DNA of 64,000 nucleotides from an uncultured Chitinophagaceae bacterium (GCA_963819925.1 CAWFYG010000005.1:381849-445848), one strand, 5' to 3'. Shown: positions 1,099-27,719, counted from the first letter of the stretch. Notes: generated from the letters alone by a model not told the origin. Numbers and translations: made by a program.

Positions 1099-3785
1099 TT
1101 ATTTATTGAAAGAAGAAAGTGTTTGCTCAATGGCAGAAATTTTAGCCTCGGCGTCCGATTTCTTTTTCCTTTCCAGTTCAATTACTTCAGGTTTTGCATT
1201 TTGCACAAATCTATCATTACTTAATTTTTTCTCAATACTATTTAGGAAACCTTTAAGATAATTTAGGTCTTTTAGACAGTTTTTCTTTTTGAACGCTTGT
1301 ATCTACCTCTATATCAGCTTCAATATAAATCTTTTCTTTTCCGGCAACTAGTGTAATGAACGAATTTTCAGGTTGAGGTGAAAAATCAATGCTTTCTGCA
1401 TTCACCTGTTTTGACAAGAATACCTTCAATAGCGTCATATTGTTTTTTGTCAACTGGTTTCGATAATGCAATTTTATGGTTTCCTTTTGCTTTAGGTTAT
1501 GTTTATTTCTTGCATCCCGTATAGCGGTTATTATTTCTTTAAGTTTGTTTCCCTGTTTAAAATTGTCTGCATCGGTTTTTCCGGCAGGTGCAAATTGTTT
1601 AACAACCAGATCATCATTTCTTTCTTTTAACAAATGATAAATTTCTTCAGTAATAAACGGCATAAAAGGATGAATAACTGTAGCAGTTCTTCAAAAAAAG
1701 AAACTGTTTTTTCATAAACAGTATGTTCAGCAATTGGTTCTTCAAATCCCGGTTTTATCCATTCCAGATACCAACTGCAGAAATCATCCCAAATTAAGGA
1801 ATAAATAGTTTTTAACGCTTCGCTTAACCTGAATTGATTCATTAAAATTTCCACTTCTACTTCTTACTTCATTCAAACGGTTTTCAAACCAGTTAATTGC
1901 AAAACTGTTACTATCAATTTCAGTAACTGCCGATTCACCTCTTGCTGTGCGACTTCCTTCCCACATCTTCAACAGTTTCAATGCATTCCAGAATTTATTA
2001 TTAAAAAACTTTCCCTGCTCCAAGGCTACTTTCATCAAATAACAGATCATTGCCGGCAGGAGAGGAAATCATAATTCCAAAGCGAACCGCATCTGCTCCA
2101 TATTCATGAATCAGGTGTAAAAGGTCAGGACTGTTGCCAAGACTTTTACTCATTTTTCTTCCCTGCTTATCCCGAACCATTCCGGTAAAATAAACATCGC
2201 TGAAAGGCTTTTCATGCATGTATTCCATGCCCGCCATGATCATTCTTGCTACCCAAAAGAAAATAATATCCTGTCCGGTAACCAAGCACAGAAGTTGGAT
2301 AATAATATTTGATGTCTTTATTGCCCGGATTTGTAATTCCATTAAAAACTTCGATCGGCCAAAGCCAGGATGAGAACCAGGTATCCAGCACATCTTCATC
2401 CTGTACCGGTTATTGAGCCTTGTTTTACCTGTGGCTCGATTGTTGCTTTCTGATTGCTTCTTCTTCCGTTTCTGCAACATACACATTTCCTTCTTCATCA
2501 TACCATGCAGGTATTTGTTGTCCCCACCAAAGTTGGCGGCTGATGCACCAGTCTTTTACATTCTCCAGCCAATATTTATAAGTAGCATTAAATTTTTCAC
2601 CGGGATGAATATTTATATTTCCCTGAAGTAACTGCTTCCAAAGCAGGCTGTGCCAGCTCTTTCATTTTTACAAACCATTGAGTGGATATTTTTGGCTCTG
2701 CTACTGCGTTGGTTCGTTGGCTGTAACCCAAGCCGGGTAGTGTATTCTTCTTCTTTTACCAGTAAGCCCTTTTTCTCTAAGTTCTTACAGTTTTTTTCCG
2801 TGCTACAAAACGATCTTCACCAATAAAAATCTGTGCGGCTTCACTTAAAGTTCCGTCTTCATTTAAAGTATCTACTACCGGAAGATTGTATTTTAATCCG
2901 AGATTAAAATCATTGATATCATGTGCAGGAGTAATTTTTAAAATTCCGGTTCCAAAATCTTTGTCAACATATTCATCAAAAATTACCGGCACTTCTTTAT
3001 TGATCAATGGAACAATAACTTTCTTGCCCTTTAAGTGCGTATAACGTTCATCGTTTGGATTGGCACAAACTGCCGTATCTCCCATAATGGTTTCAGGCCG
3101 TTGCGTTGCAATTACAATATATTGCTGTCACTGTCGTCTCGTCTGCATATTTCATATTTTATATAATACAATTTTCCCGTTACATCTTTATATTCTACTT
3201 CTTCATCACTCAATGCCGTTTTTGCGGCAGGATCCCAGTTGATCATTCTTGCGCCACGATAGATCAAGCCCTTTATTATACAGATCAACAAAAACCTTTA
3301 TTACAGCTTTGTAATAATGATCGTCCATGGTAAAATGTAACCCTGTCCCAATCCACACTACAGCCCAATCTTTCAATTTGGTTGTAAATAATGCCGCCAT
3401 ATTTTTCTTTCCATTCAAAAGCATATTTTAAAAATTCTTCTCTTGATAAATCATTTTTATCAATGTTTTTTTCCCTTTTCAGCATGTCTACCACTTTTGC
3501 TTCGGTAGCAATAGAAGCATGGTCGCTGCCGGGAACCCAACAGGCATTAAAACCACTCATTCTTGCCTTGCGAACCAAAATATCCTGTACGGTTTCATTC
3601 AACGTGTGCCCCATATGCAATACACCTGTTACATTTGGTGGGGGAATCACCACTGTAAACGGGGCCCTGCCATCAGGGATGCCTGCCTGTCCGGTAGGTA
3701 GGCTTTTAAAATAATTTTTTGAAAGCCAATGCTTATACCACTTTTCTTCAACTGCCGCAGGTATATAATTTTTACTTAAATCCAT
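1099..3785 (-). CDS. valS: Valine--tRNA ligase (fragmented by many frameshifts, probably sequencing error)
   Basis: HIGH motif ([13 protein letters not shown]), [43 protein letters not shown], anticodon-binding [10 protein letters not shown] and C-terminal coiled coil ([16 protein letters not shown]) spread over successive frames; start ATG 3785, stop TAA 1099-1101. Confidence 0.95.
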
Positions 3786-3811
3786 AATTTTATAAAAAAA
3801 TTTATAGCCTG

Positions 3812-3819
3812 CAAATGTA
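3812..3819 (-). promoter_or_regulatory. Bacteroidota sigma-70 -7 box (TACATTTG) upstream of valS
   Basis: Exact TAnnTTTG match about 27 nt upstream of the valS ATG. Confidence 0.6.
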
Positions 3820-3880
3820 ATAAAAACAACAGGCACATTATTACTAAGGAAGTTAGTAAGTTTACATTTTAAAAGATATT

Positions 3881-5257
3881 TTGTTATACGCAATTGTAGA
3901 TATTGAAACAACCGGCGGGTATGCTGCTGCAAACGGCATTACCGAGATTGCGGTATTCATCACGGACGGCGAAAAAATAGTAGAACGTTTTCACACCTTA
4001 CTTAACCCGGTATATACCATTCCGAAATACGTGGTTGCTCTCACGGGTATCACCAATGAAATGGTGGAATATGAAAGGCCTTTTAGCAGTGTTGCTTATG
4101 AATTATTTGAGCTCCTGAATGATAAAGTATTTGTTGCCCATAATGTAAATTTTGATTATTCGTTTGTAAAATATCACCTGGCACAATCGGGCTACGATCT
4201 TAATTGTAAAAAGCTTTGTACCGTAAGGCTGGGCAGAAAAATAATAAAGGAAAGCCCGGGCTACGGGCTTGGAAAAATATGCAAGCATCTTGGTATCAAA
4301 ATCGAAGACCGGCACAGGGCAACCGGCGATGCATTGGCCACCGTACAATTGTTTCATCATCTTTTGAAATGCGATACTAACGCCCACGTGCAGACGATGC
4401 TTAAGGCTAAAAGTAAAGAACAGTTTTTACCTCCTAATATTTCAGACCAGGTAATTAAAGAACTGCCGCGGCAACCGGGTGTATATTATTTTCACGATAA
4501 AAAAGGGAAAGTTATTTATGTGGGCAAGGCAAAAAGCCTGGCAAAAAGAATAAACAGTCATTTTTCCAACAATAAGCCAAACAGGCAAAAGCAGGAATTT
4601 TTGAAGAAAATTTATAACATCAGTTATAAAACAACGGCAACAGAGCTGATGGCTTTTATTTTGGAAAGCATTGAAATAAAAAAATTGTGGCCTGAGCAAA
4701 ATCGCAGCCAGAAAAGGTTTGAACAGGCGTACGGTTTATATTCTTTTGAAGATAGGAAAGGGTATATGAGATTGTGCATTGAAAAAAAGAAAAAAAATAT
4801 AAAACCGCTATACACTTTTAACCTGCTTGCCGAAGGTCATAATTTACTGCGGAAATTAATGCATCAATTTGAGCTTTGCCCGAAGCTTTGCTTTTTGCAA
4901 TCAGAAAACGTGCCCTGCCAGTTGCTTGCCGAAAAGAAATGTAAAGGAGCCTGTGAACAAAAAGAAAGTGCCCGAAAATATAACAAAAGAGTCCAGGCGT
5001 GTATCAATCATTTGGATAATGAATTACCCAGTTTTGCTTTAATAGATTTTGGATTGCAACAACAAGAGCAAAGCTGCATTTTAATGGAGAAAGGAAGATT
5101 TTATGGAATGGGTTACTTGCCCGCTGATGTAACAATAAGTACTGTCGATGAATTAAAATTACGTCTTACGCCCTACTCTGAAAATGATTATATACGGGGC
5201 CTTGTTTACCAGCATGCAGCAAGATATCCGGGAAAAAAAATTTCTTTAAGTAACTAA
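3881..5257 (+). CDS. DEDDh 3'-5' exonuclease (DnaQ-like) fused to UvrC/Cho-like GIY-YIG nuclease
   Basis: [15 protein letters not shown] and HRATGDA exonuclease motifs; PGVYYF...[14 protein letters not shown]; Cys cluster CPKLC...C...CKGAC. Confidence 0.88.
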
Positions 5258-9013: not shown

Positions 9014-9970
9014 ATGCAAATGAATACCGCTCCCACGTTTTGGCAACGAATAGGCGTGCAGAATTGGTTTCTTAAAAAGGAAGTTGAATACGCTGAAACC
9101 GCAACCATCTCACCCGATATTGTTCACAAATATATCATCGAAAAATTCCAGGAATCTATCGCAGAACTTTCTTTTGCCGGAAGGATAATATTCTATCATG
9201 AATACATCATTTGTTTTAGCCCTCCCGACTACAACAAATTCATGGATAACAATAAAGGCATATTTGGATTCATCGTCCAGGAATCTGTAAAGTCGTTTTA
9301 CAGCATATTGCAAAAGCGCAAACAAAAGGGAGAAAAGATAACTGCTTCATCCAACAAATGGGTTTTTCGTTTTGTATCTCATCCGGATTATCAAAAAGGC
9401 GACAAAAGTTTCATTGGAAAACTCCTGCCAGGCAATTCAACAAAGAATCAAAAAGACGACAATCTTAGGGTCACTTTTATTCCAAGACAAACAGGTATAG
9501 CGCAGACCTTTGATATTGCGGATGAACTATTAAAAGATTTTACATTTTACAGTGACGGGTATTATGAAATTCCTTACCACCAAAACCTTGTTTTAGACGA
9601 CTCCTTATTTGGAACTGCTGCGCCATATTTTGCCAGGTTGGAAACAACACTTCCCGATAAGAAGTATGCTGGTAAAAAACTTGAGTATTTTATGAAAGAT
9701 GAGCAAATCACAGTTTCGGGAAGTGAAGCAACTTCTGAGCAGGCAGGCATTTTTGGAATTCCCTCCGAATGGGTGTCAACTCCTCATCTTTTAATCCGCT
9801 ACGAAAAAAGCACAGGCAATTTCTTTTTAAGTTCTTTCGGTGAGAAAACCATTATCAACGAAGTCGAAATAAAAAACAGCGATCGAAAGGAGCCCGTATG
9901 GACGGCACTTCCGCTAAATTCCAGGATTGTGTTGAACGGCATTGTAACTATAAACATATTCAAAACATGA
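9014..9970 (+). CDS. FhaA-like protein: DUF3662-like N-terminus plus degenerate C-terminal FHA domain
   Basis: AGRIIFYHEYIICFSPPDY resembles the DUF3662 GR...Y.V.LSP.DY pattern. The C-terminal beta-sandwich has WVSTPH, FFLSSFG...TIINEVEI and LPLNSRIVLNG. Confidence 0.6.
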   Translation: MQMNTAPTFWQRIGVQNWFLKKEVEYAETATISPDIVHKYIIEKFQESIAELSFAGRIIFYHEYIICFSPPDYNKFMDNNKGIFGFIVQESVKSFYSILQKRKQKGEKITASSNKWVFRFVSHPDYQKGDKSFIGKLLPGNSTKNQKDDNLRVTFIPRQTGIAQTFDIADELLKDFTFYSDGYYEIPYHQNLVLDDSLFGTAAPYFARLETTLPDKKYAGKKLEYFMKDEQITVSGSEATSEQAGIFGIPSEWVSTPHLLIRYEKSTGNFFLSSFGEKTIINEVEIKNSDRKEPVWTALPLNSRIVLNGIVTINIFKT

Positions 9971-10062
9971 TATGGACAAATTATTGGCAATAGCGTTATT
10001 AATAATCAGCATTATAATATTAATTGCGCACTTCTCAGAAATAAAACAAACCCACAACAGCA

Positions 10063-11451
10063 ATGGATGATTATTTCTTTGGGATAACGGACACGGGCAA
10101 ACGAAGGGAAAAAAACGAAGATACTTTTATTTCCTGCGAAGTTGTTAAAAATGAGCTCGCGGTTGCCTGTGTGATAGATGGAGTTGGCGGCTACAGTGGC
10201 GGAGATGTTGCTGCTGCAATCGCCAGGACCGTAATCCTTGAGCAACTGGATAATTTGACGGTGGATATATCAGCAACACTACAGACCGCTTTAGTCGCCG
10301 CCAATGCTAAAATACTGGAAGAAAAAAAGAAAGACCCTGTAAATGAGCAGATGGCCTGCGTGGTAACATGTGTAGTAACCGATGTAAAGAACAATAAACT
10401 CTACTATGCACATGTTGGAGACACAAGGCTTTATCTGCAAAGAGACCACTCCCTGGTAAAACTATCTAAAGATCATTCTGCAGTAGGATTTCTTGAAGAG
10501 TCAGGCCGCTTGTCGGAAGCAGATGCCATGCGTCATCCGCGGCGCAACGAGATTACCAAGGCCCTGGGCTTTGAGGAAAATATTAATGATATCGATGGCT
10601 TTATTGAAACAGGCGAATCCCCTTTCCTTCCGGGAGATGTTATCCTGGTGTGCAGCGATGGGCTGTCAGATATGGTTGATTCCAAAACTATGCTTGGTAT
10701 CCTTCTTAATAAAAACAGCCTTGGCAAAAAAGCCGAAGAACTGGTAGTTGCTGCCAATGACGCGGGGGGAAATGATAACATTACCGCGGTATTAGTACAA
10801 AATAATAATCAACCTATGCCGAAGGTCGTCTTAAAACCACCAGAAAAAAAACACGGTGTCGGAAAGAATCAACCTGATAAAAAATCCTCACCCGGAGAAT
10901 ACCGGGAGTTACCGGTTAGGCGTAAACGAGGATTGCTTGTATTGTTAACTCTCGTGCCTATTGGCCTTTTGGCGATGGTATTGTTTCAAAAAGCTACTCC
11001 AAAGAAAAATAATATTATTTTGAACCCGGTGACGGCAAAGCCAAAAAATGAAAAACAGGATCTTTTTATCCGTAGTGCCAAAGATTCCACAAAGACATAC
11101 CAATTTGCCCCGGCAGAAGCATTAGTACGTCTTTCCGAGCCGGTTCTGATCACTAAGGATAGTTTTTATATTAAAGGGAATGGCGCTACTATTACCTGCG
11201 ACTCGAATTACAGGGGTCCCGCCGTAATTATAAATAAAACGCCAAAAGCCATAGTATTGGACAGCATTGTATTTAAAAATTTTGATGTGGCCGTTGTTGT
11301 TCAAAAGAACAATGTGGTCTTTAAAAATGTGAGGTTTATAAATTGCCGTGTGCCGGTGCAGTACCTGTTATCATTTCCGGATACTGCTATATCGGGGCGC
11401 ATAAAAGATTCCATCTTCATCCATTTTAAACCTTTAAAAAGCCACAAATGA
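10063..11451 (+). CDS. PP2C/PPM family Ser/Thr phosphatase with TM helix and extracytoplasmic domain
   Basis: TDTGKRREKNED, VIDGVGG, HVGDTRLY, DHS, LVCSDGL, GGNDNITAV; TM GLLVLLTLVPIGLLAMVLF; beta-rich C-terminus. Confidence 0.93.
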   Translation: MDDYFFGITDTGKRREKNEDTFISCEVVKNELAVACVIDGVGGYSGGDVAAAIARTVILEQLDNLTVDISATLQTALVAANAKILEEKKKDPVNEQMACVVTCVVTDVKNNKLYYAHVGDTRLYLQRDHSLVKLSKDHSAVGFLEESGRLSEADAMRHPRRNEITKALGFEENINDIDGFIETGESPFLPGDVILVCSDGLSDMVDSKTMLGILLNKNSLGKKAEELVVAANDAGGNDNITAVLVQNNNQPMPKVVLKPPEKKHGVGKNQPDKKSSPGEYRELPVRRKRGLLVLLTLVPIGLLAMVLFQKATPKKNNIILNPVTAKPKNEKQDLFIRSAKDSTKTYQFAPAEALVRLSEPVLITKDSFYIKGNGATITCDSNYRGPAVIINKTPKAIVLDSIVFKNFDVAVVVQKNNVVFKNVRFINCRVPVQYLLSFPDTAISGRIKDSIFIHFKPLKSHK

Positions 11452-14400
11452 CATCTGAAAAAACATTGTTCAACTGCAGGAAATTGGAGCGCCTTGCATT
11501 GGTCCTTATCTCCGTAGTTATGGCTTTGCTTTTTCTAAAAATGTTTTCTGTATTGCAGCGGGACTTCGCCGAAGTAAATACCAGGATGGAGCATGGCACC
11601 ATGGTCAACCTCAATAATATTAATGATTCGGCTGGTATAAAAAGGCTTTTAACCAAGGGATTATATTTTGAAGATCAGAAAGATGTTGATTTTATTGCAT
11701 TAACCATTAAGGCTGCCAAAGATCCTACGAGAACTATCGATAATGTAGGGGAACTTAATAAGCAACGCTATTTTGTAAATGCAGATGAAGCATTTGCCAA
11801 AGGCGGCAAATCATTTAAAAGCCGCGTAGCCTTATCTAGAAGTCTGCTGGGCTTTTTCGGGCCGGACTCCATATCGTTTGAGAAGGAAAGGTTGCATCCG
11901 TTGCAGGTAACTTCGCAGACCAACGTCGGTCTTGGCGTATACAATATTTCAGGTGCTATCACCAATCACCAGGATCAGCCCATTGCACGAGCCCTTGTAA
12001 GACTAAGGTCGTTGGCTTCGCCTGATAGCAATATGACCGCTGACCAGGGGGGAGATTCAAAAGAAATCATTCAATTTAATAACGGCGTAAGAAAAATATT
12101 CATTTTAGATTCGGCTAAACAAAGGCAACTGGTTTCGTTTTATGCCTATGCGCGCACAGACGCATCAGGAAAGTTTATTTTTTCAGGACTGCCCGAACAT
12201 AGGGCTTATGAACTGCTTCCATTGCAACCGGGTTACGAGTTCGGTCCGGTAAAGGGTACGCAAAATCTGAAGAGTAATACCAGCTTTAGTTTTGTTCAGT
12301 CACCACATACACTGAGGCTTTTTTCTTCAAAGGACTTCAGCACGCTAAAAAAAGAAAAGGCATTCATCGTAAGAATGCCGGAAGAAGTGAGCAGTTGGTA
12401 TTGGACGATCGTGGGTGTGTTTTTCTTTTCTTTCCTATTGCTCCATATCATTTTTACTATTCGTTCCCCTGGTGCAGATCAGTTGCTGTTACCCATCATC
12501 ATGATCCTCACCGGGCTTTCATTCCTCACTTTGTTTAGCTTGCAGGATCCGTTACGCGATCGCTTCCTGGCGAAAAGTTCCTTCATTTATTTTTCTATAG
12601 GAATTGCAGGTATCATAATTCTACAGTTTATCAATCTTAAAAAGTTTACGGCAGATTCCGGTTTATTTCGGATGTTCATTTTTAAGAACAACCGGAGCGC
12701 TGCTAACGGTTGGCCATGGGCGCTAGGAGCATTAGGACTGTTATTATTGACCATTTTTTTCGGTAGCGGCCCACAGGGAAGCGGCGTTAAAGTAAATCTT
12801 TTCGGTTTTCAGCCGAGTGAATTGGTAAAATACCTTTTGATCATATTCCTTGCTGCATTCTTCTCCAGGAATGAAAATTTTATTTCCCAATATCTATCCT
12901 GGAATAAAAGGCTGCGTTTTTTCATAATGGCGCTAGGTGCCATTGTTGCAGCAATATTACTATTCTTCGTGCTCGGTGATCTTGGTCCTGGCATAGTTTG
13001 TTGTTTCACGTTCATAGTACTTTTTTCTTTTTCACGAGGAGATTTTATGCAGGTGGTTGCAGCTATGGTATTGTATGCAGTAAGTATTTGGCTACTTAAA
13101 AACGTTTGGCTTGCCACGGGTATAACGGTAGGGCTACTCGCACTTTACATGTTATTTGCCAAAAGAAAATTGAGCGAATCTACTGTGATGGCGCTTGTAG
13201 TTGTAAGCGGATTTTTATTGCTTGACCAGGTTCATGTGCTAGCGAAAATTATTCCCGGCCCAATGCAACGTCTTGTTGAAAGAAAAGCAATCTGGTCAGA
13301 TCCATGGAACAACCAGGTATTTGGCGGAGATCAGATAGCCAACGGTATCTGGGCCATTTCTACCGGTGGCATCACTGGCCAGGGTGCTGGCGAAGGATTT
13401 GCAAAAACGATTCCCGAAGCGCATACCGACATGATCCTTCCTGCAATAGGTGAAGAATTTGGCTGGGCAGGAATCACCTGTATTTTTATTTTGTTCCTCA
13501 TTTACCTGCACCGTTCAGTTATCATTGGCAGGCAAACAGGCACACCATTTTTATTTTATTTATGTGCAGGTATTGGCATCGGGACGTTCGTGCAGTTCTT
13601 GCTGATCGCAGGCGGGTCCACCGGGGCGCTCCCCCTTTCGGGCGTAGCGTTGCCCTTCACCAGCTATGGGGGCACCTCCTTATTGTGCAGCATGATCGCG
13701 GCAGGCGTGCTTTTATCTGCATCACGACTCAATGGCTCCAAAGTTCAGATGAAATACATGATGCAGCGACAGGATAAAAATTTAATGCCGGCTTTACTTT
13801 CGGCTTGCATGGCCATTGTACTGCTGGTGATCAATGTATCTTCTTATTCCTTTCATAATAAAAAATGGATCGTAGAACCTGCCCTGGTGGCTGATCGTAG
13901 CGGGGGAAGGCTGTTCAGCTATAATCCAAGAATAAATATTTTGATGAACAGGCTGCAGGCGGGAAATATATTTGACCGGAACGGAAACATATTGGCAACC
14001 AGTGACCCAAAACTAGTGCAAAAAGAAAAAGATTCTCTCTCATCATACGGAATACCCGTTGCCGATATCGCCTCATTATCTTATAAAAGAGCAGACCGTT
14101 ATTATCCTTTTGGCGAACAGATGTTCTTCTGGACCGGTGATGCAAACACACATATTTTCGATGGCGGCAACAATGGTTATTTTGCTGAGTACGCTCATGC
14201 ATCGGAACTCCGCGGCTTTCCTGCCCCGCTGGTAAAATACCAGGTGGGCGCAAGTTCTTACCGACCCGAAAAATTTTTGCCGGCAACGGAAACTCAAATG
14301 ACCATATCGAAAAGAGATTATAGTGCGCTTGCTAATCTGCTCCTCGCAGGTATCAATAGTAATGAAGTGGAGCAATTCAAAAAACGCAATCGTGATGTCA

Positions 14401-15596
14401 CGCTCACCATGGATGTAGCCCTTCAAACTAAAATTCAACTTTCGTTGCAGCATGATGACAGCGTAAGAAGAAAACGAGTATCCGTCGTAGTTATGGAAGA
14501 TAATACTGGTGAAGTAATTGCATCTGCTATGTGGCCCTTGCCTCCGGTTAATGATTGGGATCGGATGAATTTAAGTGACGCCGAATTAAACGATTTACCC
14601 GGATGGAATGTAAACAGTGATATTGGTTTTACGCACGCAACGCAGCCAGGTTCAACGGCAAAGTTGATTACAGCGCTGGCAGCATTTAATAAACTTGGAA
14701 ATGCTGCTGCCAAAAAAATAATCCGTGTATATCCTCAGGATCTTATTCGTACTAACGGTCCCGAACCTGATGAAGCCGGCCTTATCAATATTGAGCGGGC
14801 TATTGTAAAATCCAATAACTCTTTTTTTATCCGGCTGGCAAACGAAGCTCATTTGCAGGAGGAGATGGCTACTTTATATATGCAGTCCGGAATGTTTCTC
14901 CGTGGTGTGGGTGGATATTATTTTGAGAACGAAAATAGCAATACTGACCAGCAGGAAAAATGGCGCGAGCTGTGGCGAAACACTGAATTCAAAAGCATTC
15001 TCCGATATGACCCCAACAACATCAGGCGAACCCGGGCCCTTGGAATTTCCGGCATGGCATGGGGACAGGGAGAATTAGTATCAACACCCGCATCTGTAGC
15101 AAGAATTGCATCGGCAATTGCCAACAATGGCATAATGGTTCCTAACCAGTACGTGCTTAATATAAACGGGAAACCGGCAAAAAGTAAACCAGGCTTTTCT
15201 ATTGTGAATGATTCTCTCTATGCGCAGCTACTTGAACGCTACATGAAGGAACAGAGCGCTACCAAAAAGGACAGGCTCGGCATTTATGTCGCTGGTAAAA
15301 CGGGCACTCCTGAAAGAATTTATAAAGGAGAAAGCATCAACGATGGCTGGTATGTATTTTTCGCACCAAAAGCTGAAGGCGAAGGACACATTGTAGTTTG
15401 TATAAGAATTGAAGGAACGAGGGGATCTAGCGACGCGGTGCAACTGGCAGGGAGAACCATTATTCCATTGCTATTGGAGCGTAATTATATAAAAAGCTTT
15501 GAGGCGCGGCCTCCGCTAAAGTCAATTCATGATAACAATCAGCCTGTCCAGAAGGTTGCGGACGAACTGGCAAAGAAAATTGATCGTGATCATTGA
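11448..15596 (+). CDS. Fused SEDS (RodA/FtsW) glycosyltransferase + class B penicillin-binding transpeptidase
   Basis: SEDS motifs FQPSE, GDLG, IPEAHTD (Asp661), GEEFG, LPFTSYGG; then a TM anchor, GNIFDRNG, LTMDVALQ; PBP motifs STAK (Ser1069), SNN (1122), KTG (1284); one uninterrupted ORF; ATGA overlap with the phosphatase stop. Confidence 0.93.
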   Translation: MTSEKTLFNCRKLERLALVLISVVMALLFLKMFSVLQRDFAEVNTRMEHGTMVNLNNINDSAGIKRLLTKGLYFEDQKDVDFIALTIKAAKDPTRTIDNVGELNKQRYFVNADEAFAKGGKSFKSRVALSRSLLGFFGPDSISFEKERLHPLQVTSQTNVGLGVYNISGAITNHQDQPIARALVRLRSLASPDSNMTADQGGDSKEIIQFNNGVRKIFILDSAKQRQLVSFYAYARTDASGKFIFSGLPEHRAYELLPLQPGYEFGPVKGTQNLKSNTSFSFVQSPHTLRLFSSKDFSTLKKEKAFIVRMPEEVSSWYWTIVGVFFFSFLLLHIIFTIRSPGADQLLLPIIMILTGLSFLTLFSLQDPLRDRFLAKSSFIYFSIGIAGIIILQFINLKKFTADSGLFRMFIFKNNRSAANGWPWALGALGLLLLTIFFGSGPQGSGVKVNLFGFQPSELVKYLLIIFLAAFFSRNENFISQYLSWNKRLRFFIMALGAIVAAILLFFVLGDLGPGIVCCFTFIVLFSFSRGDFMQVVAAMVLYAVSIWLLKNVWLATGITVGLLALYMLFAKRKLSESTVMALVVVSGFLLLDQVHVLAKIIPGPMQRLVERKAIWSDPWNNQVFGGDQIANGIWAISTGGITGQGAGEGFAKTIPEAHTDMILPAIGEEFGWAGITCIFILFLIYLHRSVIIGRQTGTPFLFYLCAGIGIGTFVQFLLIAGGSTGALPLSGVALPFTSYGGTSLLCSMIAAGVLLSASRLNGSKVQMKYMMQRQDKNLMPALLSACMAIVLLVINVSSYSFHNKKWIVEPALVADRSGGRLFSYNPRINILMNRLQAGNIFDRNGNILATSDPKLVQKEKDSLSSYGIPVADIASLSYKRADRYYPFGEQMFFWTGDANTHIFDGGNNGYFAEYAHASELRGFPAPLVKYQVGASSYRPEKFLPATETQMTISKRDYSALANLLLAGINSNEVEQFKKRNRDVTLTMDVALQTKIQLSLQHDDSVRRKRVSVVVMEDNTGEVIASAMWPLPPVNDWDRMNLSDAELNDLPGWNVNSDIGFTHATQPGSTAKLITALAAFNKLGNAAAKKIIRVYPQDLIRTNGPEPDEAGLINIERAIVKSNNSFFIRLANEAHLQEEMATLYMQSGMFLRGVGGYYFENENSNTDQQEKWRELWRNTEFKSILRYDPNNIRRTRALGISGMAWGQGELVSTPASVARIASAIANNGIMVPNQYVLNINGKPAKSKPGFSIVNDSLYAQLLERYMKEQSATKKDRLGIYVAGKTGTPERIYKGESINDGWYVFFAPKAEGEGHIVVCIRIEGTRGSSDAVQLAGRTIIPLLLERNYIKSFEARPPLKSIHDNNQPVQKVADELAKKIDRDH

Positions 15597-15669: not shown

Positions 15670-16446
15670 ATGTTCAAACTATTTAAAGATCCCGGAGTAG
15701 ACGTAAAAAAGATCCGTCACACATTGTTGCAATTCATCAAAGAGAAATTACAGAAAGCTGAAGGAGGCGAAGGCGCTGATATAAATGGCATACATCTTTA
15801 TATCAATTGCGATAGCCCCGAACGGTATTTATATGAGTCTGCGGTGTATGCTTCAAGCCCCGGAAAATTTAGAGACGAAATTCAAAAAGTTGCCGATGAT
15901 TATGCGATACTTCTAAGATCGTCGTGGCAATGCGAAGTAGCTTTCACTAATATCTTTCCGGAACACTCTTACCTGGCACCCGAGGTAAATACAGCTCTCT
16001 TTATTTCAACAGGAAAAGCAAGTACGGCTGTTAAAAGATCGCCGGCTTTTATCCGCATATTAAGCGGCACTGCCGAGAAGGAATTGTATGTACTTAACCC
16101 ATCGAAAGAAAAAATAAATATTGGCCGTGAAGCTCAGGCGCAACTGAGCGGTGGCTTTGTGCGGAAGAATGTGATTGCATTTACTGCAGTAGGGTCAATG
16201 GATATTAACCGTTCCGTAAGTAGACAACATGCTCACATTGAATGGGAGCCATCGAGTGGAGCATTTTTAGTCTTTGCAGATGAAGGCGGCATACCGCCAC
16301 ACAATAAAATGAAAATACGTACCGCAGAAGGAAGTTCAATAAAAATGCACGCGATTGAGGTAGGCCATCGCTTGCAGGAAGGTGACCAGGTGATACTGGG
16401 CGACAATGCGGTGCTTGAATTTACTTATTCAGGATTGGACAATTAG
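15670..16446 (+). CDS. FHA domain protein
   Basis: INIGRE, SVSRQHAHI, HRLQEGDQVILG: canonical FHA GR and SxxH motifs after a roughly 120-aa N-terminal domain. Confidence 0.85.
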   Translation: MFKLFKDPGVDVKKIRHTLLQFIKEKLQKAEGGEGADINGIHLYINCDSPERYLYESAVYASSPGKFRDEIQKVADDYAILLRSSWQCEVAFTNIFPEHSYLAPEVNTALFISTGKASTAVKRSPAFIRILSGTAEKELYVLNPSKEKINIGREAQAQLSGGFVRKNVIAFTAVGSMDINRSVSRQHAHIEWEPSSGAFLVFADEGGIPPHNKMKIRTAEGSSIKMHAIEVGHRLQEGDQVILGDNAVLEFTYSGLDN

Positions 16447-16447
16447 T

Positions 16448-18076
16448 ATGGCAAAAGTATTTACGATAACGGAAGGATTAGAAAACCTGGGTGCATTAAA
16501 ATCCGGCGGCCAGGGATCAGTATATAAAGCACGGCGACATGGTGAAATCATTACCGCCATCAAAATATTGCCAACGCCAATTTACAGTGAAACGGATGAG
16601 GATAAAAATTTTTCTTCTTTTCAAAACGAGGTACAAAAATTAAAAAAGGTAAACGAAACATCGAACCCGAATGTCGTCAGCATCGTTGCTTCCGGTATTA
16701 CCACCTCTGGTAATTTTCCATACATTGAAATGGAATATATTGAAGGCACGGACCTCGGTGAATTGCTGAAATCTCCCTGCGACCCGGTTTTTACTATTAA
16801 GGAAACAATTAAGTTGGCTGACCATTTATCCAATGCATTGGCCCATTGCCACCGGGCAGATATAAAGCATGGCGATATTAAAAGCAATAATGTAAAATTC
16901 AATAAGCGTACGGGTAATTATATGCTGCTCGACTTTGGATTATCCATTATGTCGGACGAGCAACGCCGAACCAGTATACGCCATGCCGGCGCGATAGAAT
17001 TTATGGCGCCGGAGCAAAACATGGGTGTAATGTATTTTGAAACAGACATCTATAGTTTTGGAATCATACTCTTTGAGTTGTTGGCAGGTATCGTACCCTT
17101 TCCATTAAATAACCAGGGAGAGATGGGGCGTAATTCGGTGATGCTCGCCCATATGGAATCCAGCCCACCCGACCTGCTATCACTTCGCAGGCAGGCAATT
17201 CCTTCACATTGGAGCCATGAAAAGAAAGAACATGAAATGCAGGTGCCTTCCTGGCTCATCAAAATGGTTTACCGGTGCCTGGAGAAGGAACCTGAGAAGC
17301 GGTTTAGAAATGGAACGGAACTACAGGAGTTTATTCATTCGGGACTTATTGCTGAGGAAACAAAGGCTGCTAATAACTCAACTGAGCAACTAACAGTCGT
17401 CCGCACACAGGAGTTACAGCTAAAGAAATATATCCAAAAATTGGAATTGCTGGCAGCAGAAAAGGACAGCCTGATAGAAGACCTACGAATGCAGGTTGAA
17501 TCGAAAGACAAGGCTCTCGAACAATACCAGTATTCGGATTACTATGCACTGACACCCAAAAAAACGGGGATTTCAAAAAGCCTGTTTATTATGGTGCTGT
17601 TAATTGCCCTTGGCCTCGGTGGGTTTACTACTTATGATTCATTTCTCCGGCCGGTTAATAATAATCTTTCAGATTCTTCGCTCGCAAAGGTGCAACCGCC
17701 GGTTAATCACGTAGATTCTTCTTCGACCGCTAACCATCAACCGCAGAAAAAACCCAGGTACAGATCCACCAAAAACACTGCCTTGCCTGCAAGCAGCACA
17801 GACAAAAAAGAGCCGGAGCAATCGAATAGTGATTTTGAAAACACTTCCTATAAAAGTCCTTCGGCCCGGCAACAGTATAAGGTGATTAACAATGCCTATT
17901 TTTATGTAACTCCCGACATTAAGACCAGGCGCAATGTTTACATTATTCCCGGCGAAGAACCTGTAACATCGCTCAATGAGAAGAACGGGTTTGTTTTTGT
18001 TTCATTTATCGACGCAGAGGGAAAAACCACGAAAGGTTGGATCTTAAAAAAAGATCTCAGAGCGGTGGATGACTAA
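16448..18076 (+). CDS. Membrane Hanks-type Ser/Thr protein kinase with C-terminal SH3b-like domain
   Basis: SGGQGSVY, AIK, HGDIKSNN, DFG, MAPE, DIYSFG; coiled coil; TM LFIMVLLIALGLGGF; C-terminal YKVINNAYFY...GFVFVSF...KGWILKKDL. ATG 16448 lies 1 nt after the FHA stop. Confidence 0.93.
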   Translation: MAKVFTITEGLENLGALKSGGQGSVYKARRHGEIITAIKILPTPIYSETDEDKNFSSFQNEVQKLKKVNETSNPNVVSIVASGITTSGNFPYIEMEYIEGTDLGELLKSPCDPVFTIKETIKLADHLSNALAHCHRADIKHGDIKSNNVKFNKRTGNYMLLDFGLSIMSDEQRRTSIRHAGAIEFMAPEQNMGVMYFETDIYSFGIILFELLAGIVPFPLNNQGEMGRNSVMLAHMESSPPDLLSLRRQAIPSHWSHEKKEHEMQVPSWLIKMVYRCLEKEPEKRFRNGTELQEFIHSGLIAEETKAANNSTEQLTVVRTQELQLKKYIQKLELLAAEKDSLIEDLRMQVESKDKALEQYQYSDYYALTPKKTGISKSLFIMVLLIALGLGGFTTYDSFLRPVNNNLSDSSLAKVQPPVNHVDSSSTANHQPQKKPRYRSTKNTALPASSTDKKEPEQSNSDFENTSYKSPSARQQYKVINNAYFYVTPDIKTRRNVYIIPGEEPVTSLNEKNGFVFVSFIDAEGKTTKGWILKKDLRAVDD

Positions 18077-18232: not shown

Positions 18233-18625
18233 TTACCTATGCATCCTTTTGTAAAGAGACCCAATGATAAAAACCTGTATCAGCACCATTATTAATGCAC
18301 TGGTGAGTATATAAGAAATTTCCGCAGGAATGGCGATGCTGAAATGAGGGATCTTAATACTATTTGCAATCTTGTTTAAGTAAGGAATCTTTGTTGCCTG
18401 TAATTGATAACCACTTGCAAAGGTAAACAGGATAATAAAGCACAGGAACGAAATTACTCCAACTAAAATACGTTTTGGTATCAAAGGTTTGTACACACTA
18501 GCTTTACGACTTGTTTCCATAATGGCACCCATCACATTTTCTGTAAAATCATTTGGAGGAGTATCCAGTCCTTCTTCACAAACTATGTTTTTTATAAGGT
18601 CATCTATTTTGTGCTTGTGTTCCAT
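18233..18625 (-). CDS. Putative membrane anti-sigma factor
   Basis: Directly downstream of the ECF sigma; PPNDFTENVM motif then two hydrophobic helices. Confidence 0.65.
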   Translation of the reverse strand: MEHKHKIDDLIKNIVCEEGLDTPPNDFTENVMGAIMETSRKASVYKPLIPKRILVGVISFLCFIILFTFASGYQLQATKIPYLNKIANSIKIPHFSIAIPAEISYILTSALIMVLIQVFIIGSLYKRMHR

Positions 18626-18628
18626 ACT

Positions 18629-19204
18629 TTACAAATTTAAGATAGAAATTATTTCATTTTTCGATTGTAACATTTCCATCAACTTTGAACGGATGCGATA
18701 CAGTTTTATCTTAACATTATTCTCTTTAATTCCCATTATTTCGGCAATGTCCCTCAGCGGAAGTTCCTCATAATAATACAGCGCAACGATCACCTGGTCG
18801 TCCGGCGAAAGCCGGTGAATTGTATCTTTCATCAATACCCTGATCTCTTTAAGATCAATCTTTTCATCAAGAGAATGGGTTTCTGTTTCACTTTGTTCGG
18901 TATCGCCTTCAGTGATTTCCTTATACCATTTGCCTTTATTCTTTTTTACAGTATCCACGGCGTGATTGTAGGCAATTCTGTATAACCACGTGGCAAATGC
19001 GGCCTGGTTATTATAGCTTCTCAAAGATCGGTAGCACTTGAGAAAAATCTCCTGGGCTGCATCTTCGGCTTCCTCTCTATTGCCGGTTATTTTTAGCGCA
19101 AGGGTATACACCATGTTCTGATACTTTTCTACCAGGAACTTAAAAGCCCCCGTATCGCCGTCCAATATGCGATTGATGTAGATAGTATCGGTATTATTTT
19201 TCAA
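18629..19204 (-). CDS. ECF RNA polymerase sigma factor
   Basis: Region 2 (AEDAAQEIFLK, FATWLYRIAYN) and region 4 (LYYYEELPLRDIAEIMGIKENNVKIKLYR); TTG start. Confidence 0.93.
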   Translation of the reverse strand: MKNNTDTIYINRILDGDTGAFKFLVEKYQNMVYTLALKITGNREEAEDAAQEIFLKCYRSLRSYNNQAAFATWLYRIAYNHAVDTVKKNKGKWYKEITEGDTEQSETETHSLDEKIDLKEIRVLMKDTIHRLSPDDQVIVALYYYEELPLRDIAEIMGIKENNVKIKLYRIRSKLMEMLQSKNEIISILNL

Positions 19205-25074: not shown

Positions 25075-25882
25075 TTAACAGGAATTGCTTTTTTTACAAT
25101 TCAATTGTTGAATGAGAGCCGCAATTTTATTATTATAGTTAAATAGTTGCTCTCCCTTTTGACCAAGTATCCGAAAGATTAATCCGTTAACAGGAAGCGA
25201 AGAAATTCCAAATGTGATGTTATCAACTCCTGATAATAATCGTTTACCTTCTTCAGCAATTTTTTCCATATTCAATTGAATCATCGATAAATAAAAGTGT
25301 TGACTGGTGTGTGTATCCTTCTAACTGGCCGATGGCATGAATATTTCTTTTTGCGGGTTCAAGCAAAACATTTTCTCTCACAACGAGTTTTTTATTAAGA
25401 TAAACATTGGTAATATTTTGAAAACTGGTAAACTTAAATTCCTCGCCGCTTAATTTTCTTCCGCAGGTTATTATCTCGCTCCAGGTGAGATGATGGTTGG
25501 TGCTTAAATAAATATTATTGAGAGATGAAAAGCCTGATGCTGCGTGCGGTACATTCGGATGCGGCAAAAAGATCAATGAGCCATTATTTCCAATACGTAC
25601 ATTCATTGACTGGCTTGCTGTATCAGTCATGGTGAAGAGCCGTTGATAACCTTGCGTAGTCAAATGGACCTGCGCATTTTCTTCAACGTTAATTTCAATT
25701 TTATAATGATCATTGTTTAAAATTCCGGGAGAAGAGCTGGTGATCATAAGCCGTAACAGTCCGTCAGACTTGTTCTCCGTAATGTTGGCCAGTTTGAAGG
25801 GTTGTTTGTAAAAACATTCTTTCAAAAAAGTTCCTTCATTTTTGTAACCTGCTACTATATGTAAATGTTTGTTCAACGACAT
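25075..25882 (-). CDS. ureD: Urease accessory protein UreD (one frameshift near 25270)
   Basis: [34 protein letters not shown]; the C-terminal part (GLIFRILG...EQL) continues in another frame; last gene of the ure cluster. Confidence 0.88.
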
Positions 25883-26511
25883 AGCAGAGGTTCTTCAATT
25901 TCTTCAATCAACGCAAATTTTTTTATCCACCCAATTACTCTATCCAATCCTTCACCTTCCATAAGATTTGTGAAAACAAACGGATTACCTTTGCGCATTT
26001 TTCTTGCGTCAAGTTCCATTACAGCAAGATCCGCGTGTACATAAGGAGCAAGGTCAATTTTGTTGATTACTAATAAATCACTTCTTGTAATTCCCGGTCC
26101 GCCCTTGCGTGGAATCTTATCGCCTTCGGCAACATCAATAACAAATATCGTGACATCAGCAAGATCAGGGCTAAAAGTTGCTGAGAGATTATCGCCGCCA
26201 CTTTCAATAAAAATTATTTGAACCCCAGGAATGCGTTTTGCCATTTCATCCACTGCTTCTAAATTCATACTGGCATCTTCACGGATCGCTGTGTGTGGAC
26301 AGCCGCCGGTTTCTACTCCAATAATTCGTTCTGCCGAAAGCAAACTGTTTTTCGTAAGAAACTCTGCATCTTCTTTTGTGTAAATATCATTCGTGATAAC
26401 AGCAATGCTGTAATCATTATGCATAGTTCTTGTCAATTTTTCTATTAACGCAGTTTTGCCGGAGCCAACGGGACCAGCGATGCCAATTTTTATATAATTT
26501 CTTTCTCCCAT
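25873..26511 (-). CDS. ureG: Urease accessory GTPase UreG
   Basis: [33 protein letters not shown]; start ATG 26511. Confidence 0.97.
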
Positions 26512-26512
26512 T

Positions 26513-27202
26513 TTAAGACATATATAACCGTGAATACAATTCTTCATGCTGCATGCAACGTATATCAAATCCTGCGCAGCAAAAGCCTATCATTTCTTCA
26601 TCGGGTGATAAACTTTGTTGCACCAGTTCATTGATTAAAGGAAACAAAGACATCAATATTTCCTGTCCATCCTGCTGGCCTAAGGGAATGAGCTTTACTG
26701 CATTGGTAACAAAACCCGTTGCCGCGTTATAATAAAATGCAGTGAGCGCTTCCTTTTTGTCAATATTCATTGCGTGCGATAATAAACCAAATACGATACA
26801 ATAATGACCAAATGCTTGTTCGCCAAGAATATATTCTTTATACTTTTTAAGCAAAATAAATGCGTCATTCTGTTCAAATATTTTTAAAAGACGACTGCCT
26901 AATTTATTACTGGCGAGCCTCATTTCTTTCGGCAGTTTAACAGCAGAACAAATATTATCTAATGCTACAATTGCTTTCACGTCGTTGTTGCAGGCTGCGT
27001 CGTAAGTAAGTGAAAGCAATGCTGCATCTGTATAGCAAATGTTTTGTGACAGTTGCTCTATTACAAATTCTTTTGCCGATTTTTTATCATTAACTATTCC
27101 TTCTTGCACATAAGTCTCCAGCCCCGCCGAATGGGAAAATCCACCAATAGGCAAAGCCGGATCACACAAGTGTAATAAATGCAAGATGTTTGTTGAGTAC
27201 AT
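26513..27202 (-). CDS. ureF: Urease accessory protein UreF
   Basis: [36 protein letters not shown]. Confidence 0.96.
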
Positions 27203-27706
27203 TCATGAAATGGTTGTAAGCTGATTAATTTTATTTATACCGGTTACGTCTACCTGTAAATGAGGTAAGATAGTTGTGTGAAATTGCCCGTTCAGTTTTC
27301 TTTTTTCAACTTTTACCGTATGGCCTAGTGACTGCAACAAGTTGTATAATGGAACATCGTAAGGAACCAACAATTCATCACCTTCATAAAATAGCGGCAA
27401 ATGCCTGTTGCCAATTTCATAAGATATAGCCGATGCGTTAATCATATCTCCCGGTTCAATCACTATACATTTGCAAGGGTTTATTTCGACAACAACTATG
27501 TTTGTTTCATCCTGCCACAGGATGTCGCCTTCTTTTAAATCAGGATTTTCATTTAAGAATTTTATCGCGATAGTTTTGCCCTGTCTCGTTTGTTTATGCA
27601 AAATCCGCTTTCTTGTTTCGTGCCATTCAATGGACAGGATATCAATATTACGATTAAGGCTAGACGCGGAATGTATATTGCCCAGTTTTTCTTTTAAGAT
27701 GATCAT
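27203..27706 (-). CDS. ureE: Urease accessory protein UreE
   Basis: WHETRKRI, LKEGDIL, YEIGNRHLP, VPYD; position between ureC and ureF. Confidence 0.92.
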   Translation of the reverse strand: MIILKEKLGNIHSASSLNRNIDILSIEWHETRKRILHKQTRQGKTIAIKFLNENPDLKEGDILWQDETNIVVVEINPCKCIVIEPGDMINASAISYEIGNRHLPLFYEGDELLVPYDVPLYNLLQSLGHTVKVEKRKLNGQFHTTILPHLQVDVTGINKINQLTTIS

Positions 27707-27719
27707 TTTGCAAAAATGT

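Follow-up and report, generated by a model that had tools for sequence, protein, structure and literature searches.

A fused SEDS-class B PBP gene in a six-gene phospho-signalling cassette of an uncultured Chitinophagaceae bacterium: a predicted single-chain peptidoglycan synthase

INTRODUCTION

What is the 1382-residue protein that an uncultured Chitinophagaceae bacterium encodes at positions 11448-15596 of a 64,000 nt stretch of its DNA (GCA_963819925.1, CAWFYG010000005.1:381849-445848; the whole stretch is called the window below, and positions are counted from its first letter), and if two partners of peptidoglycan synthesis have truly become one chain in it, what controls them? SEDS proteins polymerize lipid II by way of a conserved aspartate, while penicillin-binding proteins of class B (bPBPs) crosslink through the serine of an SxxK motif and activate their SEDS partner through a pedestal. 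In the canonical pairs RodA-PBP2 (6pl5/8tj3) and FtsW-FtsI (8bh1/8p1u) the two are separate polypeptides, whereas the window protein is covalent. The locus as a whole is probably best explained as encoding an accessory, phospho-regulated single-chain synthase within a six-gene cassette.

Fusions of this kind are already known. A 2025 Microlife survey lists 117 InterPro proteins with both domains under the name of putative 'bifunctional' class B synthases, including a 947-residue protein of Rhodococcus jostii with glycosyltransferase (GTase), pedestal and transpeptidase (TPase) parts (PMC12516126). The same source singles out for investigation a 1341-residue chimera of Pedobacter ginsengisoli with Ser/Thr kinase and phosphatase neighbours, reads it as two tandem GTase domains with no pedestal, and reports that the organism retains intact FtsI/FtsW and MrdA/RodA beside it (PMC12516126). 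The novelty that a sequence-only reading of the window had implied for a natural fusion was thus overstated. Artificial fusions have also been made: an engineered Escherichia coli RodA-(GGGS)3-PBP2 protein is active in vivo and in vitro, polymerizes lipid II, is insensitive to moenomycin and loses its activity with the D262A substitution (PMC6207328), and a Bacillus subtilis SpoVE-SpoVD fusion, as cited in the same paper, works as well.

RESULTS

One reading frame with two catalytic domains

The predicted synthase has the following parts.

11448..15596, + strand: fused synthase ORF, ATG start, 1382 aa, about 13 transmembrane (TM) helices
11487..12461, + strand: extra N-terminal module, residues 14-338 (TM0, helical subdomain, beta-sandwich, LTVRTP, TM0')
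12477..13727, + strand: SEDS (FtsW/RodA/SpoVE) glycosyltransferase core, residues 344-760, a single 10-TM domain with Asp661
13728..13838, + strand: cytoplasmic basic linker (761-778) and bPBP membrane anchor (779-797)
13839..14480, + strand: class B PBP pedestal module, residues 798-1011, with three conserved boxes
14481..15407, + strand: penicillin-binding transpeptidase domain, residues 1012-1320 (S1069-T-A-K1072, S1122-N-N1124, K1284-T-G1286)

The sequence-only reading had placed both domains in this one ORF, joined by a short basic linker, and every motif that it named was recovered in frame: QPSE at residues 455-458, DLG at 511-513, EAHTD at 657-661 (the D661 codon at nt 13428-13430) and LPFTSYGG at 735-742 in the SEDS part, then the 18-residue linker (RLNGSKVQMKYMMQRQDKN), the anchor helix (LMPALLSACMAIVLLVINV, nt 13782-13838), GNIFDRNG at 839-846, STAK at 1069-1072 with the catalytic Ser1069 codon at nt 14652-14654, SNN at 1122-1124 and KTG at 1284-1286. 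Both domains score above their Pfam cut-offs, FTSW_RODA_SPOVE (PF01098) with 154.5 bits against 26.4 and Transpeptidase (PF00905) with 79.9 bits against 22.1. The SEDS match is split into two Pfam stretches because insertions interrupt what is a single SEDS domain; model positions 1-353 of TIGR02210 cover residues 344-759 as one unbroken stretch, and the core was aligned with the solved FtsW (8bh1/8p1u) and RodA (8tj3/6pl5) structures, PEAHTD matching residue for residue the PEAHTD of Pseudomonas aeruginosa FtsW and the PERHTD of E. coli RodA (MrdB).

The pedestal falls below threshold for Pfam PBP_dimer (14.7 bits against a cut-off of 24.4). It carries three boxes, G-x-I-x-DRNG (839-846), R-x-YP-x-G (884-889) and D-x-x-LT-x-D-x-x-LQ, and a profile of 13 diverse family members searched against the PDB matched 4ovd (E 2.9e-8) and E. 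coli MrdA (8tj3_C, E 1.7e-6). These matches are bPBP N-terminal modules that have the three boxes in common in the same order, and we therefore regard the pedestal as real, as the sequence-only reading had it together with the anchor and the intact transpeptidase motifs. The solved chains that match best, 4ovd and 4mnr ('peptidoglycan glycosyltransferase'), are soluble fragments from Coriobacteriia and may themselves derive from fused proteins of this sort. On the C-terminal half, Foldseek gives class B PBP3 as the best match (E 4e-12), a class B PBP-like fold. No GT51 domain was found in the synthase by Pfam and NCBIfam profile scans, and a weak match to PBP_1a_fam is confined to the TPase part.

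Taken by profiles and motifs, then, the protein holds a SEDS domain with ten TM helices and, in a large extracytoplasmic loop, the catalytic aspartate, the counterpart of E. coli RodA D262, and a bPBP with its anchor, pedestal and TPase motifs. SEDS TM10 is followed by a short cytoplasmic linker, then the bPBP TM, the pedestal and the TPase, an order that fits the topology of the two-protein complexes, as had been proposed, and domain families, catalytic motifs and pedestal boxes likewise match RodA-PBP2 and FtsW-FtsI; the N-terminal additions and the equivalog scores given below set the window protein apart from those pairs. The engineered fusions share the order of SEDS C-terminus, cytoplasmic linker and bPBP N-terminus, but they are artificial. 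The window protein occurs in nature and is ancient; its 18-residue basic linker is native, an extra N-terminal module has been added, and the protein is not an orthologue of RodA or PBP2.

Reality and conservation of the fusion

A fused frame could arise if a sequencing indel, or the loss of a stop codon, merged adjacent SEDS and bPBP genes, and the window does contain one locally broken gene, leuS (about 1250-3932, at least six ORFs), where related contigs do not have about 20 single bases. The junction behaves otherwise. Contigs of independent soil metagenomes in Logan, from other runs, span 13300-13876 and 13776-14031; they match the window at 99% identity or better, differing by a single substitution and by no indel, so that the continuity across 13700-13900, which the sequence-only reading wanted checked, is borne out. 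Full-length homologues that take in both domains at 63-92% identity number more than 120; they are 1347-1440 aa long and come from Ferruginibacter, Ginsengibacter and Segetibacter. When one genome per species was scanned, 460 of 185,579 species genomes held a relative, a number that is a lower bound since the family-specific patterns were strict; the best 80 of these 460, which include the isolates Ginsengibacter hankyongi, Segetibacter koreensis DSM 18137, Hanamia caeni and Mucilaginibacter conchicola, all have both domains in one continuous match (80/80), and the SEDS and bPBP matches of a tblastn search abut in every one of the 80 loci. Full-length homologues number in the hundreds across independent data sets, and the conserved length of the linker also speaks against a joined-gene artefact. 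An artefact has next to no probability here and is already refuted by the 80 genomes and the contigs across the junction; that the fused gene is real is virtually certain.

Two further observations concern the same interval. One independent metagenome contig (run X1) has G instead of T at position 13800, within the codons of the bPBP anchor, which is ordinary strain variation. A metatranscriptome contig maps to 13360-13510.

Beyond close relatives, a HMMER search of 1.84 billion cluster representatives returned 364 clusters (at 50% identity) with E<=1e-30, which, with the more than 120 full-length homologues, is far beyond chance. The top 150 representatives are nearly all fused, with lengths of 1100-1770 aa and 30-64% identity, and more than 100 clusters have the SEDS-bPBP architecture. 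Conservation was read from an alignment that joins the window protein to 129 representatives, each 1050 aa long or longer (n=130). In the SEDS part D661 is invariant (130/130), and T660, Q455 and D511 are each present in 129. In the bPBP part S1069, K1072, S1122, N1124, K1284 and G1286 are each found in all 130, residue 1285 is T in 117 and S in 13, and the pedestal residues R884 and Y886 (130/130) and D843 (128/130) are similarly maintained. The spacing from SYGG to GNIFDRNG has a median of 98 (range 92-162), the linker being conserved in length and not in sequence. Since the SEDS aspartate and the PBP catalytic residues are invariant, both active sites are under selection, which speaks strongly against decay, or a purely structural role, of either domain; the family is large and old, with purifying selection at both sites.

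The fused synthase reaches the Cytophagales (Emticicia, Fibrella), and in the Acidobacteriota (Bryobacteraceae, Acidobacteriaceae) it is shorter, at about 1070-1140 aa. NCBI annotates relatives as 'FtsW/RodA/SpoVE family cell cycle protein'; an exact look-up of the Segetibacter protein P0084 gave no match. Orthologues from Pedobacter and Mucilaginibacter (L071, L075, L078) are about 64% identical to the window protein, and their recovery places it in the chimera group of the survey. The survey's chimeras likewise have SEDS and bPBP TPase in one chain, GTase before TPase, and the Pedobacter protein likewise has a Bacteroidota host with kinase and phosphatase neighbours; in place of its two tandem GTase domains and missing pedestal, however, we read one SEDS domain with insertions, a true pedestal and a separate N-terminal module (PMC12516126).

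The N-terminal module

The sequence-only reading began its description at the SEDS domain. It was right about the SEDS-bPBP part, but overlooked some 340 N-terminal residues that comprise two TM helices and a periplasmic domain. Hydropathy places a TM helix at 14-34, then about 280 non-hydrophobic residues, then closely spaced TM helices at 317-338, 346-366 and 376-397 before one at 421-441. In alignments with the solved structures and with TIGR02210, helix 421-441 corresponds to SEDS TM3 and residue 344 to model position 1, TM1 being 346-366, so that helix 317-338 is extra. The two additional helices thus bracket a periplasmic insert and bring the chain back to the cytoplasm, so that the in-to-out orientation of SEDS TM1 is kept.

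The module consists of TM0 (14-34), a periplasmic helical subdomain (about 43-149), a beta-sandwich (about 157-283) and TM0' (317-338). An AlphaFold2 (AF2) model of residues 1-345 from 79 sequences is confident (mean pLDDT 85.9, pTM 0.72) and forms a hairpin in the order TM0, helical subdomain, beta-sandwich, short helix and TM0'. Foldseek likens the sandwich to CnaB pilin, carboxypeptidase-D regulatory and transthyretin-like folds, in agreement with a sub-threshold Pfam match to CarboxypepD_reg; the matches of the module are driven by the sandwich and not by the helical subdomain. A family profile of the helical subdomain found nothing significant in the PDB (best E 0.67, a segment of the GH73 protein FlgJ), and its assignment as helix-hairpin-helix or ComEA-like was considered and dropped, there being no Pfam match. 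R309, in an LTVRTP-type motif just before TM0', is present in 130/130 homologues, and short family members without the sandwich keep the helical part and R309. A search for the module outside the SEDS-bPBP family returned only fragments of the same family.

The surrounding gene cassette

While the sequence-only reading described the gene itself correctly, it passed over the phospho-signalling genes around it. The synthase is the fourth of six compact, co-directional genes, which run 318-aa protein, 32-aa micropeptide, PP2C, synthase, FHA protein and Ser/Thr kinase. Its five companions are as follows.

9014..9970, + strand: 318-aa protein, first gene, cytoplasmic, conserved in 62 loci
9972..10070, + strand: 32-aa micropeptide (MDKLLAIALLIISIIILIAHFSEIKQTHNSNG), one TM and a short polar tail with a conserved Thr/Ser
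10063..11451, + strand: membrane PP2C phosphatase, 462 aa (PP2C_2 60.5 bits, PP2C 51.6 bits)
15670..16446, + strand: FHA-domain protein, 258 aa, cytoplasmic, with a GR...SRxH pattern
16406..18076, + strand: Hanks-type Ser/Thr kinase, 556 aa by longest ORF (Pkinase 118 bits)

The 318-aa protein has no Pfam match, no PDB match and no paralogy to the FHA protein of the cassette. Its gene occupies the position of an acidobacterial gene for an FhaA_N+FHA protein, with which hhalign gives a weak probability of 36% over the FHA part only, so that its C-terminus is weakly FHA-like. The micropeptide gene starts 2 nt after the stop of the first gene and overlaps the PP2C start by 8 nt; it was missed by ordinary ORF listing and is left unannotated by gene callers in a Ferruginibacter genome. 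An equivalent hydrophobic ORF is nonetheless present in 62/62 Bacteroidota loci that hold both neighbours, about 29-44 aa long as called and 31-33 aa from a conserved internal Met, and Acidobacteriota have a 31-aa TM ORF at the same position (L081 4463-4558, L082 6654-6749). Its tail carries the motif [HNS]F-x-[DEN]-[IV]-[KR]-x-[T/S], with Thr in 51 of the 62 and Ser in 10; in the window this residue is T27 (nt 10050-10052). The micropeptide may be a sixth part of the cassette and a phospho-acceptor in it.

The phosphatase has a cytoplasmic PP2C domain with the metal-site motifs NEDT, DGVGG, SDGL and DNIT, a TM helix at 288-312 and, beyond this helix, about 150 aa that form an extracytoplasmic C-terminal domain (residues ~313-462), and its stop codon overlaps the synthase start (ATGA). 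In the window protein this ectodomain has no significant Pfam match; that of the acidobacterial PP2C (L081 4559-6139) matches NosD, Beta_helix and Pel9A-like families, which suggests a glycan-binding right-handed beta-helix. The FHA protein, conserved in 74 loci, scores 17.9 bits with Pfam FHA, below the cut-off of 20.7, and it is a clear orthologue of the downstream gene product of L081, itself a Pfam FHA match (hhalign probability 98.3%, E 1.4e-14). The likely start of the kinase is the ATG at 16448, 2 nt after the FHA stop; its AIK, HGDIK, DFG and APE motifs are intact, a TM helix lies at 386-411, and the ectodomain of about 145 aa (residues ~412-556, nt 17560-18073) has neither PASTA repeats nor any other Pfam match. 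By eye, its last ~65 residues have a small, beta-rich, SH3b-like look.

Of the 80 Bacteroidota loci, most of those whose length takes in all the genes have them in this order, a few having their best kinase match displaced or upstream. As a unit the cassette is maintained in Bacteroidota (Chitinophagales, Sphingobacteriales), and it recurs, with its kinase in another place, in Acidobacteriota. There the order is FhaA_N+FHA (the FhaA_N match of L081 being weak), 31-aa TM peptide, PP2C with a NosD-type beta-helix ectodomain, kinase, synthase and FHA. The signalling proteins can also be part of the synthase chain. Four representative clusters (P0147, P0169, P0219 and P0250; 1389-1772 aa) have PP2C joined to the N-terminus of the synthase, and a 1718-aa acidobacterial protein (P0403; L082 8001-13157) has a kinase joined there; by their predicted domain layout these fusions tie the signalling proteins physically to the synthase. 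Genes flanking the cassette are not conserved between genomes; in the window they encode a SulP permease, an ECF sigma factor and a GH13 enzyme.

In its logic, on comparison of gene content, the system that comes closest is the actinobacterial locus fhaA-fhaB-pstP-rodA-pbpA-pknA-pknB (Mycobacterium tuberculosis Rv0020c-Rv0014c; Corynebacterium glutamicum cg0064-cg0057; PMC6554272, PMC2784874). The two loci have in common FHA protein(s), a membrane PP2C, SEDS, bPBP and membrane Hanks kinase(s), all co-directional, and the acidobacterial cassette also shares the FhaA_N+FHA first gene. The window cassette, by contrast, has its SEDS and bPBP fused, an extra periplasmic module on the SEDS part, one kinase without PASTA repeats, an added gene for a 32-aa TM micropeptide and a first gene that is not recognizably fhaA, and its hosts are diderm Bacteroidota and Acidobacteriota. 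The two are functionally analogous and probably homologous.

Other features of the window

Directly downstream of the cassette, and convergent with it, lie the ECF sigma factor gene (18629-19204, - strand) and an ORF for a 130-aa membrane protein (18233-18625, - strand), a possible anti-sigma factor; the pair is not conserved beside the cassette in other genomes. The leucyl-tRNA synthetase gene leuS, on the - strand, is broken into the pieces listed here.

3285-3932, - strand: catalytic N-part
2777-3085, - strand: editing domain
2001-2501, - strand: catalytic C-part
1627-1854 and 1253-1663, - strand: anticodon-binding pieces

Contigs from the same soil metagenomes are about 90-95% identical to the window over leuS, as against at least 99% over the synthase, and the single bases mentioned above are absent from them; leuS is either a decaying copy or carries local insertion errors. 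A urease alpha subunit gene (27720-29441, - strand) is followed by several shorter co-directional ORFs, and the region 25253-29441 is probably a urease operon, unrelated to the synthase.

DISCUSSION

The window protein is very likely an active, bifunctional single-chain polymerase and crosslinker, a prediction drawn from its conserved active sites and domain order and made reasonable by the engineered RodA-PBP2 fusion, which is active, moenomycin-insensitive and dependent on its aspartate (PMC6207328). The SEDS part would polymerize lipid II and the tethered bPBP would crosslink the nascent glycan, as in RodA-PBP2 or FtsW-FtsI, with the covalent chain fixing the SEDS:bPBP stoichiometry at 1:1. 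Class A PBPs similarly combine glycan polymerization and D,D-transpeptidation in one chain, but they do so with GT51, whereas the window protein would use a polytopic SEDS polymerase, expected to be moenomycin-insensitive, and a class B TPase with a pedestal; the likeness is one of functional analogy only.

Such an enzyme could serve the cell in place of its ordinary machinery or in addition to it. Its best equivalog-type matches are indeed ftsW, rodA and pbp2_mrdA, yet it scores 155.4 against a cut-off of 337.5 for TIGR02614 (ftsW), 140.3 against 336.7 for TIGR02210 (rodA) and 72.7 against 455 for TIGR03423 (PBP2/MrdA), less than half of the cut-off each time, and by these profiles it is not an orthologue of RodA, FtsW or PBP2/MrdA. 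A fused replacement of RodA-PBP2 or FtsW-FtsI would account for the strict conservation of both active sites, and the actinobacterial counterpart of the locus does hold the cell's RodA and PbpA. There is, however, no dcw or mreBCD context within the window, the flanking genes differ from genome to genome, relatives were found in at least 460 of the 185,579 species genomes and are far from universal in Bacteroidota, and canonical pairs are reported to coexist with the Pedobacter chimera (PMC12516126). The housekeeping role is accordingly improbable. An accessory role, as a third SEDS-bPBP system beside the elongasome and the divisome, is what we consider likely, because of the low equivalog scores, the absence of dcw or mre context, the variable neighbourhood of a cassette that only a minority of species carry, and the intact FtsI/FtsW and MrdA/RodA reported beside the Pedobacter chimera (PMC12516126).

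The company that the gene keeps points to its regulation, and the synthase is probably phospho-regulated. The kinase would phosphorylate Thr/Ser on cytoplasmic parts of the system, possibly on a signal sensed by its ectodomain; the FHA protein would read phospho-Thr and the PP2C would reset the phosphorylation, the activity or localization of the synthase being switched in this way. Candidates for a part in regulation or targeting are the micropeptide and the N-terminal periplasmic module. The same neighbourhood could be taken to mean that the protein is itself a signalling or scaffold component, its PBP domain acting as a muropeptide or beta-lactam sensor (as in BlaR1), or its SEDS domain doing no more than bind or flip lipid II to feed the kinase pathway. 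The gene does lie inside a signalling cassette whose kinase has no PASTA sensor of its own, and sensor PBPs also retain SxxK; but a full bPBP layout follows directly on a SEDS domain with invariant Asp, QPSE, DLG and SYG, most members have no output domain attached, and SEDS proteins are established polymerases (PMC6207328). We regard a signalling or scaffold role as very unlikely.

The chain might also be a precursor that is cleaved in the linker to give an ordinary two-protein complex, the fusion serving only co-translation and stoichiometry. Purified engineered RodA-PBP2 fusions are partly cut within the linker (PMC6207328), and the window protein has a short, basic linker that lies exposed. 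Neither a protease site nor a conserved motif for cleavage was seen in it, though, its length and not its sequence being what is conserved, and the fusion has persisted in two phyla and been lengthened further by joining PP2C or kinase to it, which suggests that the covalent linkage itself is tolerated or selected. Cleavage is therefore unlikely.

Several points weigh against this account of an accessory, phospho-regulated synthase. For every member of the family the function is a prediction from sequence, and the accessory role rests on one paper's statement about a relative together with indirect arguments. The AF2 model of residues 331-1382 (38 close homologues) is weak overall (mean pLDDT 59, pTM 0.44), with the transpeptidase mostly at pLDDT 80-93 and the pedestal modelled poorly; it is too weak for judging how the bPBP TM packs on SEDS TM8/9 or the pedestal geometry, and Foldseek confirmed from it only the class B PBP-like C-terminal half. 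No phospho-acceptor site was identified: T401 of the synthase, which with D403 lies in the TM2-TM3 cytoplasmic loop, was tried and rejected, as these residues are invariant in close relatives and are not conserved family-wide (n=130). The 318-aa protein is not demonstrably an FHA protein by Pfam, PDB or hhalign comparison, and a kinase without PASTA repeats must have a sensing logic different from that of PknB. We infer the operon from gene spacing, and a scan for sigma-70 promoters and terminators gave no enrichment over shuffled sequences, Bacteroidota promoters not being covered by the sigma-70 model.

A bolder proposal, which we offer tentatively and think rather less likely than not to hold in all its parts, is that the cassette is a self-contained, phospho-switchable peptidoglycan synthesis module of Bacteroidota and Acidobacteriota. 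The N-terminal hairpin domain would then serve the synthase as a built-in periplasmic module for activation or targeting, in place of factors of the MreC/RodZ or FtsQLB/FtsN type; the dedicated kinase, PP2C and FHA trio would switch the synthase directly; the tail Thr/Ser of the micropeptide might accept the phosphate that the FHA protein reads; and the module would drive specialized wall-building (repair, shape transition or resting-cell formation) in diderm bacteria. If true, hard-wired control of a SEDS-bPBP enzyme by Ser/Thr phosphorylation would be seen here for the first time outside Gram-positives.

To our knowledge, no description exists of the N-terminal module with its topology, of the conserved micropeptide, of the six-gene cassette that spans two phyla or of the PP2C- and kinase-synthase fusions, and literature searches for a cluster of FHA, PP2C, FtsW and PBP genes in Bacteroidetes found none described. 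The part of the survey that we cite does not describe the FHA genes or the micropeptide, nor the acidobacterial branch or the fusions of PP2C and kinase, all found here, and its domain reading of the Bacteroidota chimera is corrected to one SEDS domain, a pedestal and a new N-terminal module (PMC12516126).

In summary, this natural fusion confirms the lesson of the engineered constructs, that SEDS and class B PBP act as one 1:1 enzyme, and a whole SEDS-bPBP synthase in one polypeptide of about 155 kDa is well suited to biochemistry and cryo-EM. The phospho-signalling cassette is the most informative clue to the biology of the synthase. Phospho-control of SEDS-bPBP enzymes has so far been studied mostly in Actinobacteria and Firmicutes; the hosts of this cassette are Gram-negative soil bacteria with cultured members, among them Segetibacter koreensis, Ginsengibacter hankyongi, Hanamia caeni and Mucilaginibacter conchicola, and because the synthase is encoded beside, and in some relatives fused to, its putative signalling partners (kinase, phosphatase, FHA reader and micropeptide), Ser/Thr phospho-control of a SEDS-bPBP enzyme becomes directly testable in them.

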